Virus record (IMG/VR): IMGVR_UViG_2778261453_000010
Span: 1-4,281 of that record
Length of the DNA stretch: 4,281 bases
Source: a virus
Lineage: Duplodnaviria > Heunggongvirae > Uroviricota > Caudoviricetes
Direction: 5' to 3' (one strand)
A program made the position numbers and the translations under genes. Of this stretch, positions 3,787 to 4,083 are shown one piece after another (position 1 is the stretch's first letter; each line of letters begins with the position of its first letter). The notes under the pieces were generated by a model. The model saw only the letters and a list, made by a program, of their open reading frames with translations, did not search any database and had not been told where the DNA came from.

Positions 3787-3829
3787 CTGATGTATGTCTC
3801 CGTCACCGCCGACAGAAAATGAAAGTAAA

Positions 3830-3866
3830 GGAAAACAAAAAGCCGCCAGTGTCACCCACTGACGGC
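3830..3866 (-). terminator. Strong rho-independent terminator on the minus strand, immediately upstream of the holin (tR'-like)
   Basis: Minus strand reads GCCGTCAGTG-ggtga-CACTGGCGGC followed by TTTTTGTTTTCC: a 10-bp stem with one G-U pair, a 5-nt loop and a U-tract. It sits about 45 nt upstream of the holin start, the position of tR' in lambdoid late operons. Confidence 0.6.
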
Positions 3867-3942
3867 CAACGCCGGGAGCCGTGATTATGACATTCAGGCT
3901 CTGCTAAAAATGCCAGATAACATTCCGGCCCCCCTGATTCAG

Positions 3943-3969
3943 GTTATAAATGACACAATATCTTGACAA
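3943..3969 (-). promoter_or_regulatory. Candidate late (pR'-like) promoter: TTGTCA, about 15-nt spacer, TATAAC
   Basis: Minus strand GTTGTCAAGATATTGTGTCATTTATAACCTG. The spacer is short and the call is by eye; it would give a roughly 100-nt leader ending at the 3830-3866 terminator. Confidence 0.2.
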
Positions 3970-4039
3970 CACCCGTCACTGTCTGTCAGAAAATGTACTG
4001 CCAGATATAAGTATCATGTGAAACCCAACTATCCTTCTT

Positions 4040-4083
4040 AGCCAGTACTTCTCCGACGAAAGTCAGTACTGGCTGTTTTTTTA
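4040..4083 (+). terminator. Plus-strand intrinsic terminator-like hairpin (10-bp perfect stem, 15-nt loop, T7 tract)
   Basis: AGCCAGTACT (4040-4049), loop tctccgacgaaagtc, AGTACTGGCT (4065-4074), then g and TTTTTTT (4076-4082). On the minus strand the same hairpin lacks a U-tract. It overlaps the stop of the minus-strand ORF ending at 4084. Confidence 0.4.

Follow-up and report, generated by a model that had tools for sequence, protein, structure and literature searches.

A conserved terminator hairpin before the holin gene and a predicted PasA-family sRNA gene share the esterase-holin interval of a lambdoid prophage

Introduction

The question raised by this locus is whether the DNA directly upstream of a prophage holin gene carries a Q-dependent control region of its own. 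The locus lies in a viral DNA stretch of 4,281 nt (hereafter the window), the minus strand of which is the late region of a lambdoid prophage. In lambda, RNA polymerase modified by Q overrides terminators. The initial annotation of the window had described a terminator before the holin gene as a counterpart of lambda tR', and had expected a promoter at which Q is loaded within roughly 200 bp upstream. The 297-bp interval proved to lie between the esterase and holin genes in the late operon of a lambdoid prophage and to hold two separate elements of known kinds. One is an intrinsic terminator oriented towards the holin gene; the other, on the plus strand, is a predicted sRNA gene of the PasA/PasC family.

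Results

Gene neighbourhood of the interval

On the minus strand, the 3' end of an esterase gene is followed by a 297-bp gap (4083-3787), the holin gene, YdfR/DUF1327, a lysozyme gene and the Rz spanin gene (Table 1). The holin gene starts with the ATG at 3786-3784, and its neighbours in the lysis cassette matched PF07041, PF00959 and PF03245 in the Pfam search. The 65-aa esterase fragment contained in the window, with its stop codon at 4086-4084, had no Pfam match of its own. Near-identical records label the gene upstream of the gap as a SASA-family or nanS-p (yjhS) sialate O-acetylesterase, which agrees with the earlier remark that the gene ending at 4084 does not look like Q. Thousands of E. 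coli prophages carry near-identical DNA, as do Stx1 phages, H-19B, phage 434 and phage 2B8. Among complete E. coli genomes, the best matches to the whole window had 93% coverage at 93.5% identity or 87% coverage at 96.7%. Nothing pointed to a defective prophage, a possibility that had been raised because no Q gene was visible in the window.

Small ORFs of 20-23 aa on both strands of the interval were without support and were rejected as genes. A 91-aa extension of the holin gene from a GTG codon was also rejected as a gene; its start falls inside the terminator hairpin.

Table 1. Features in and around the esterase-holin interval (positions in the window).
Feature	Position	Strand	Details	Basis
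nanS-p / SASA-family sialate O-acetylesterase gene, 3' end	4084-4281, runs off the window	-		Annotation of near-identical records
Predicted PasA/PasC-family (EcOnc51-like) sRNA gene of an Hfq-binding family	3998-4082	+	About 85 nt, antisense to the late genes	Homology, fold
Candidate sRNA promoter	3963-3992	+	-35 TTGACA (3963-3968), 18-nt spacer, extended -10 TGtCAGAAA (3984-3992)	Sequence reading
Candidate late promoter, judged not to be one	3943-3969	-	TTGTCA (3969-3964), 15 nt, TATAAC (3948-3943)	
Weaker second terminator-like hairpin	3906-3929	-	GCCGGAATGTTATCTGGC then ATTTTT	Scan; also in the relative L150; no independent support
Intrinsic terminator before the holin gene	3832-3867	-	Hairpin 3867-3841, U-tract 3840-3832	Scan, fold, conservation, covariation
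Holin leader hairpin	3797-3818	-	3' arm with Shine-Dalgarno GGAG (3801-3798)	Fold; same arrangement elsewhere
Class II (phage 21 S-type) holin gene, first of the lysis cassette	3580-3786	-		PF04971, E = 1.2e-32

Terminator before the holin gene

The consensus scan identified GGCCGTCAGTGGGTGACACTGGCGGCT followed by TTTTGTTTTC on the minus strand. The hairpin (11 pairs, 7 of them G-C, with a 5-nt loop; UUUUUGUUUU) forms a G+C-rich stem-loop directly before the U-tract. Its RNA fold has a free energy of -21.6 kcal/mol (z = -3.69), which was equalled by none of 200 shuffled sequences. The distance from the end of the U-tract at 3832 to the holin ATG is 45 nt. Because the scan of the whole window returned 9 terminator-like sites against 3.9 ± 2.4 expected, a single match carries little weight, and independent support was therefore sought. 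Support beyond chance came from the conserved position of the element and from covariation in its stem, as described below. In the record of phage 434 (OL657226), a near-identical sequence is annotated as 'terminator'. The strong minus-strand terminator of the initial annotation is thus upheld, the scan, the fold, conservation and covariation being in agreement. The possibility that the element terminates in both directions was dismissed, since on the plus strand the 3841-3867 hairpin precedes CAACGCCG and not a T-tract.

The 3' arm of a smaller hairpin between the terminator and the ATG includes the Shine-Dalgarno sequence of the holin gene. The fold of 3787-3840 (-9.5 kcal/mol, z = -1.46) is not significant alone. 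The same arrangement was found in a leader class of unrelated sequence (CUUCCG...CGGGAG) and in phage 21, and the phage 434 record annotates an RBS at the equivalent GGAG.

Conservation of the pre-holin hairpin

A total of 147 loci encoding relatives of the holin were collected, and the DNA upstream of each holin gene was scanned. Among the loci with a holin at least 93% identical, 73 of 80 had a hairpin and T-tract with the end of the stem 40-65 nt before the ATG. Two leader classes of unrelated sequence were seen, with many variants of the stem, and all 36 unique variants retained a hairpin, with free energies from -11 to -23 kcal/mol. In an alignment of 25 distinct variants, 93.3% of cells were paired, and 6 of the 11 pairs had changed on both sides. 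The observed value was reached by 0 of 500 shuffles, and controls in which the alignment was slid gave 11-57% paired.

The position of the hairpin did not depend on the esterase gene. The same distance to the ATG was found where the upstream gene is an ORF of 81-96 aa, and also in 933W. Phage 21 carries at the same position a hairpin with T-tract that is unrelated in sequence (-25.5 kcal/mol, z = -5.28). In several variants the stem is kept and the U-tract is poor (CCCCTCCTGTTGTTG), a hint that the hairpin may do something besides terminate. Across unrelated upstream contexts, phage 21-type holin genes are accompanied by two hairpins, one with a U-tract about 50 nt upstream of the ATG and, after it, one that sequesters the Shine-Dalgarno sequence.

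Search for a late promoter upstream of the holin gene

If the TTGTCA/TATAAC pair were a Q-dependent late promoter, with a qut site in the same ~200 bp, the pre-holin terminator would be tR' and a short transcript resembling lambda 6S RNA would be made unless Q were present. Such a reading draws on the -35-like and -10-like hexamers, on the strong terminator about 105 nt further on, and on the short pR'-tR' unit found upstream of S in lambda and in phage 21. The pair had been called weak, and rightly so. Its absence from the consensus scan is explained by the 15-nt spacer and by a TATAAC without the final T, a sigma-70 promoter having near-consensus hexamers 16-18 nt apart; the scan listed no minus-strand promoter-like site in 3787-4083. 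The comparison with known pR'/qut regions that the initial annotation had proposed as a check revealed no similarity. When the interval was compared by blastn-short with the regions downstream of Q in lambda, phage 434 (which has a Q82-like Q), H-19B and the closest relative, L003, only chance matches of 8-11 nt were obtained, and the best match to the four known pR' regions was an 11-mer with E = 0.12. The pattern of the phage 21 Q-binding element had 0 matches in the interval. As judged from these comparisons, a late promoter or qut site of the Q types compared is not present in the ~200 bp upstream of the holin gene.

The position of Q in related prophages points the same way. The window region does not directly follow a Q gene, as its upstream neighbour is the esterase gene. 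Every relative with the same intergenic class and enough flanking sequence has its Q gene, of one of three types, 3.3-8.4 kb upstream of the holin gene, in line with the earlier suggestion that Q may lie further upstream. In E. coli O157:H7 PV15-279, in which the sRNA gene copy is 100% identical and the terminator near-identical to those of the window, Q is located 3.7 kb upstream of the holin gene, and three tRNA genes, TerB, a DUF3927 gene and the esterase gene lie in between. A recognisable pR' and a short-leader terminator directly follow Q in both relatives examined (L003 and L150). L003 has TAAAAT...AACGATGGG after Q, a lambda-like pR' with an AACGAT element, and then a terminator. L150 has TTGCAA...TATATT and then a terminator, resembling the pR' after the Q82-like Q of phage 434.

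Two further observations bear on the candidate promoter. TTGTCAA is best read as the complement of a putative sRNA -35 element, TTGACAA, because a perfect TTGACA recurs before the antisense terminator in other intergenic classes. Sense-strand intergenic RNA of EPEC, recovered on Hfq by RIL-seq as a target-type partner, maps upstream of the candidate and acts as a target rather than as an sRNA.

Comparison with the late control regions of lambda and phage 21

The window and the pR'-qut-tR' regions of lambda and phage 21 have in common an intrinsic terminator that precedes the lysis genes of a late operon dependent on Q. To that extent the likening of the pre-holin terminator to lambda tR' holds; the arrangement does not correspond, since lambda tR' ends about 400 nt before S, directly after pR'. 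In contrast to lambda-type regions, the interval is not beside Q and has no consensus promoter, Q-binding element, sigma-dependent pause element or sequence similarity to them. In the phage 21 record (OL657228), pR', the Q-binding element, the pause element and tR' are annotated 325 nt before S21, with tR' at +2 to +49 of pR'. The hairpin with T-tract about 50 nt before S21 is a second, unannotated element, distinct from tR'. The record of phage 434 (OL657226.1) has a sense terminator annotated just before the holin RBS, near-identical to that of the window, and antisense terminators annotated after the esterase stop codon; the sRNA genes themselves are unannotated.

PasA-family sRNA gene on the plus strand

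By homology and predicted fold, the plus-strand segment 3998-4082 is an sRNA gene of the PasA/PasC family, a kind already described. The gene, which fills most of the interval, had been missed in the initial annotation. The interval aligns in register with prophage PP2 of EPEC E2348/69, in which PasA lies at NC_011601 743499->743415, and the 5' end of the sRNA was placed at 3998 by homology to the mapped end of PasA. The sequence is 82% identical to PasA and 88% identical to the EcOnc51 locus of Sakai Sp12, both without gaps, and 72% identical to PasC. Like PasA and PasC, it is flanked by the sialate esterase and holin genes and lies on the strand opposite to them. Its predicted terminator consists of a hairpin at 4039-4075 (AGCCAGTACT...AGTACTGGCT) and a U7 tract at 4076-4082, and abuts the esterase stop codon. 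Five pairs of the stem show compensatory changes across 8 family members. Termination in both directions was dismissed here as well, as AAGAAGG comes after the sRNA hairpin when the minus strand is read.

PasA of E2348/69 is an Hfq-dependent sRNA mapped between the esterase and holin genes and antisense to both, and PasA and PasC were found to be expressed, bound to Hfq and stabilised by it, by northern blotting and RIL-seq (Pearl Mizrahi et al. 2021, PMC8550237). EcOnc51 was found to be bound to Hfq by Hfq-CRAC, and EcOnc51 and EcOnc52 are the EHEC homologues of PasA and PasC (Tree et al. 2014, PMC4104026). In Sakai Sp12, the Hfq-CRAC cluster of EcOnc51 spans the homologous seed and terminator. 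The order esterase-PasA/PasC-holin has been called typical (Zhu, Shabalina and Storz 2026, bioRxiv 10.64898/2026.05.13.724894). RNA-seq of uninduced E2348/69 gave a baseMean of 3879 for PasA.

The predicted sRNA resembles PasA/PasC and EcOnc51/52 in position, antisense orientation and length of about 85 nt, and has in common with PasA and EcOnc51 the 5' end CTGCCA..., the AGCCAG/CTGGCT base of the terminator and the poly-U tail. It differs from PasA by a compensatory change from C:G to U:A in the stem and by the loop GAC instead of CAC, and its seed-proximal region (AACCCAACUAUCCUUCUU) is closer to the O157 variant than to PasA of E2348/69. The window contains a single sRNA unit, whereas phage 434, E2348/69 PP2 and Sakai Sp12 contain two tandem units.

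Of 5426 complete E. coli genomes, 86 matched at least 80% of the sRNA sequence; some of the copies are identical and none is annotated. About 290 further E. coli genomes matched only part of the sRNA, which among the matches listed was the first 50 nt. In the one such genome examined, that of O157:H7 strain 8368, an IS1203-family element lies just past the partial match. Rfam contains no model of the PasA/PasC family, and none of its families matched the sRNA of the window. The only hit at a permissive threshold, to the Bacillus family ncr982 (4004-4088, plus strand; 28.5 bits against a gathering threshold of 50, E = 0.31), was rejected as reflecting only a generic terminator shape. The AgvB, AsxR and STnc100 families had no match in the window in the Rfam search. 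AgvB, AsxR and STnc100/PasD (Tree et al. 2014, PMC4104026) are also short Hfq-binding sRNAs in the Q-dependent late region of lambdoid prophages, encoded at moron sites downstream of pR', and some moron sRNAs of this type are oriented against late transcription, as is the sRNA of the window. Unlike the latter, AgvB and STnc100 of L003 lie at the opposite end of the esterase gene.

Candidate promoter of the sRNA

TTGACA at 3963-3968 is likely to be the -35 element of the sRNA gene. The start predicted from TTGACA and the extended -10 element is at about 3999, beside the 5' end equivalent to that of PasA at 3998. A perfect TTGACA located 16-18 nt before an A-rich hexamer (TATAAA, TAGAAA, TAAAAA or TGAAAA) recurs in 933W, in further intergenic classes and in the second of the two tandem units of E2348/69, and TTGACA is about equally far from the antisense terminator in the window and in another intergenic class (L018). 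PasA may arise by processing of a longer RNA, as has been suggested (Zhu, Shabalina and Storz 2026, bioRxiv 10.64898/2026.05.13.724894). Because of this possible precursor and of the poor -10 hexamer (CAGAAA), the promoter assignment is uncertain.

Discussion

The reading that we consider probable is that the pre-holin terminator blocks Q-independent transcription and is read through by polymerase that Q has modified at a distant pR', with an sRNA of the PasA family encoded on the plus strand. When Q is absent, the terminator would stop transcription entering from upstream, which probably stems from basal or moron-driven transcription of the esterase gene; the lysogen would therefore not express holin and endolysin. 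Once the prophage is induced, polymerase that Q has modified at pR', beside the Q gene and several kb upstream, would pass this and the other terminators, and the lysis genes would be expressed. A small hairpin sequestering the Shine-Dalgarno sequence would lie between the terminator and the ATG of the holin transcript. The sRNA would be transcribed away from the holin gene towards the esterase gene and would end at its own terminator at the esterase stop codon. Read on the sense strand, the sRNA hairpin lacks a U-tract, and transcripts of the esterase gene should therefore continue for about 250 nt, through the sRNA gene, to the pre-holin terminator. We infer both the activity of this terminator in vivo and its Q-dependent read-through from the features of the locus and from lambda biology. 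The initial annotation had placed the lysis genes under Q. A strong terminator directly before the lysis cassette makes it plausible that these genes need a terminator-resistant, Q-modified polymerase, and this part of the proposal stands; the promoter and qut site expected within ~200 bp were not found.

Expression data fit such an arrangement. At the homologous locus of uninduced EPEC E2348/69, the RNA-seq baseMean values of the esterase, holin and lysozyme genes were 102, 3.5 and 3.2, respectively; the holin and lysozyme counts are tiny, not normalised for length and open to multi-mapping between prophages, and the locus has a near-identical intergenic region rather than the exact sequence of the window. 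The counts are consistent with the model and not decisive. The nanS-p gene has basal expression that rises by 1-2.4 logs with mitomycin C, as expected if the gene lies inside the Q-dependent late transcript.

The hairpin might instead be mainly an element of the lysis mRNA, serving as a processing site, as a 5' stabiliser or, together with the Shine-Dalgarno hairpin, in translational control of the holin, with termination being secondary. We regard this as unlikely. It would account for the constant distance of the hairpin from the ATG (47-57 nt) as it travels with the holin leader across unrelated upstream DNA, for the variants in which the stem is kept and the U-tract is degraded, and for the Shine-Dalgarno hairpin that comes next in both leader classes and in phage 21. 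It is opposed by the canonical U-tract that directly follows the stem in most variants (73/80 loci), by the G+C-rich stem and short loop, which are as in efficient intrinsic terminators, and by EPEC reads that are fewer in the holin gene than in the esterase gene, at very low counts. The functions of mRNA element and terminator are not mutually exclusive.

Less likely still, the terminator could be the 3' end signal of the esterase moron, with a 3' UTR of about 250 nt and no specific role in gating lysis. Morons typically carry a terminator of their own (cf. Juhala et al. 2000), and the pre-holin terminator is the first strong one on the sense strand after the esterase stop codon, the sRNA hairpin lacking a sense-strand U-tract. 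Yet the same element stands at the same distance from the ATG behind a different upstream ORF, and phage 21, which has no esterase gene, has its sequence-unrelated analogue at that position. The hairpin therefore belongs to the holin module and not to the esterase module. This alternative overlaps with the model of a terminator that blocks Q-independent transcription, as it is by ending transcripts of the esterase gene that the terminator would insulate the lysis genes. A local late promoter is very improbable in view of its departures from consensus, the lack of pR' similarity and of a phage 21 Q-binding element, the esterase gene in the place of Q, the pR' and tR' found right beside a distant Q in two relatives, the overlap with the conserved putative sRNA -35 element and the target-like behaviour of the EPEC RNA.

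Beyond the blocking of Q-independent transcription, it is conceivable, and in our estimate doubtful, that the pre-holin hairpin, the Shine-Dalgarno hairpin and the convergent antisense sRNA together make up a 'lysis gate', a module conserved in phage 21-type holin cassettes. The hairpin would then do more than terminate, since covariation keeps the stem in variants with a degraded U-tract. The sRNA, fully complementary to the 3' UTR with which the esterase transcript extends into the terminator, would tune Q-independent leakage into the holin gene, either through a duplex of the sRNA with the 3' UTR or through transcriptional interference. The timing of lysis, or its probability, would then be tied to an sRNA that the lysogen expresses.

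The elements described here are of known kinds, and near-identical homologues have already been annotated (phage 434) or published (PasA, EcOnc51). The papers on nanS-p and the Pas sRNAs contain no discussion of a terminator before S or of an sRNA promoter, and the comparative analysis of the hairpin is a modest addition to the literature consulted. The main value of the analysis is a correction of annotation: a terminator immediately upstream of a holin gene is not to be taken for tR' with a late promoter beside it. In moron-rich lambdoid prophages, including Stx phages, pR' and qut stay beside Q, kilobases away, and the gap between the esterase and holin genes is the home of PasA-family sRNA genes, which are unannotated in the RefSeq genomes checked. 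The pattern of hairpin conservation fits a silencing of the lysis genes while morons, among them the esterase, Stx and sRNA genes, are expressed in the lysogen.

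Small RNA genes around the esterase gene

As shown in the table, two tandem antisense units were located in phage 434, E2348/69 PP2 and Sakai Sp12, and each unit has its own TTGACA, sRNA body and terminator. A single antisense unit was present in the window and in 2B8-like prophages. The window differs in length from the three tandem-unit records by about 150 bp because it has one unit instead of two.

The esterase mRNAs of E2348/69 have a reported PasA target site, CTGGTGCTGGA (RIL-seq chimeras, E2348C_0688 with PasA). The same sequence was present in the 3' coding end of the esterase gene in the window, and the sRNA of the window could still pair with it via one G:U wobble.

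In L003, the closest relative, a convergent pair of STnc100 and AgvB was found just upstream of the esterase gene. Thus sRNA genes occur on both flanks of the esterase. In phage 933W, an antisense hairpin with T8 abuts the esterase stop codon, and its sequence is unrelated to that in the window. TTGACA-17 nt-TAAAAA is located about 100 nt from this hairpin on the antisense strand. The arrangement suggests a different antisense sRNA at the same position in 933W, apparently unannotated.

About 290 complete E. coli genomes matched the sRNA gene only in part. In the listed examples, mostly O157:H7, the whole match comprised the first 50 nt of the sRNA. In the one example examined, O157:H7 strain 8368, an IS1203-family element lay just past the partial match. 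The esterase-holin gap of Sakai Sp4 also contains an insertion, IS629/IS1203, which follows the promoter-distal sRNA unit. Insertions may recur in this gap.

Holin leader and terminator-like sites

The Shine-Dalgarno (SD) sequence GGAG is sequestered by a hairpin in the holin leader of the window, an arrangement reminiscent of sdi, the structure that precedes S in lambda. The same SD-sequestering arrangement was found in a second leader class, unrelated in sequence (GCUUCCG-loop-CGGGAG), and in the phage 21 leader (UCCGUU-ACU-GGCGGA). The second class, 933W included, reads ATG TAC CAG ATG, a dual-start motif resembling phage 21 MKSM. The leader class of the window reads ATA CAT CAG ATG instead. 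The holin of the window therefore seems to have no upstream start, and so may not have the longer antiholin-type product either.

A strong hairpin precedes S21 by about 50 nt in phage 21; it folds at −25.5 kcal/mol (z −5.28), and CCUUCUUUUUUU comes after it. No terminator is annotated for it in OL657228, an otherwise detailed record.

The lysis cassette of the window contains a second strong sense-strand terminator-like site, which follows the lysozyme stop (2647) and precedes Rz, and the stretch of about 640 bp around it contained small hydrophobic ORFs only. Late transcription would also have to get past this candidate terminator.

Coordinates of features in the window and in related records
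Feature	Record	Position	Strand	Detail
Strong sense-strand terminator-like site	window	2524-2556	-	AAAACCCCGTTTGTTGGCAGCAAGCGGGGTTTT then GTTTTT, 15 pairs
Stretch around this site	window	2004-2646		
SD GGAG	window	3801-3798		
Holin-leader hairpin	window	3797-3818	-	
ATA CAT CAG ATG	window	3795-3784	-	
First 50 nt of sRNA	window	3998-4047	+	
PasA target sequence	window	4106-4116	-	
Tandem units	phage 434 (L001)	6190-6400		
Tandem units	E2348/69 PP2 (L004)	2266-2500		
Tandem units	Sakai Sp12 (L151)	580-800		
STnc100/AgvB	L003	6945-7200	+/-	
Region of antisense T8 hairpin and TTGACA-17 nt-TAAAAA	933W (L153)	1826-1950		
Region of partial sRNA match and IS1203-family element	strain 8368 (L149)	401-505		
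Region of IS629/IS1203 insertion	Sakai Sp4 (L152)	731-1301		
Pre-S21 hairpin	phage 21 (L155)	1255-1317
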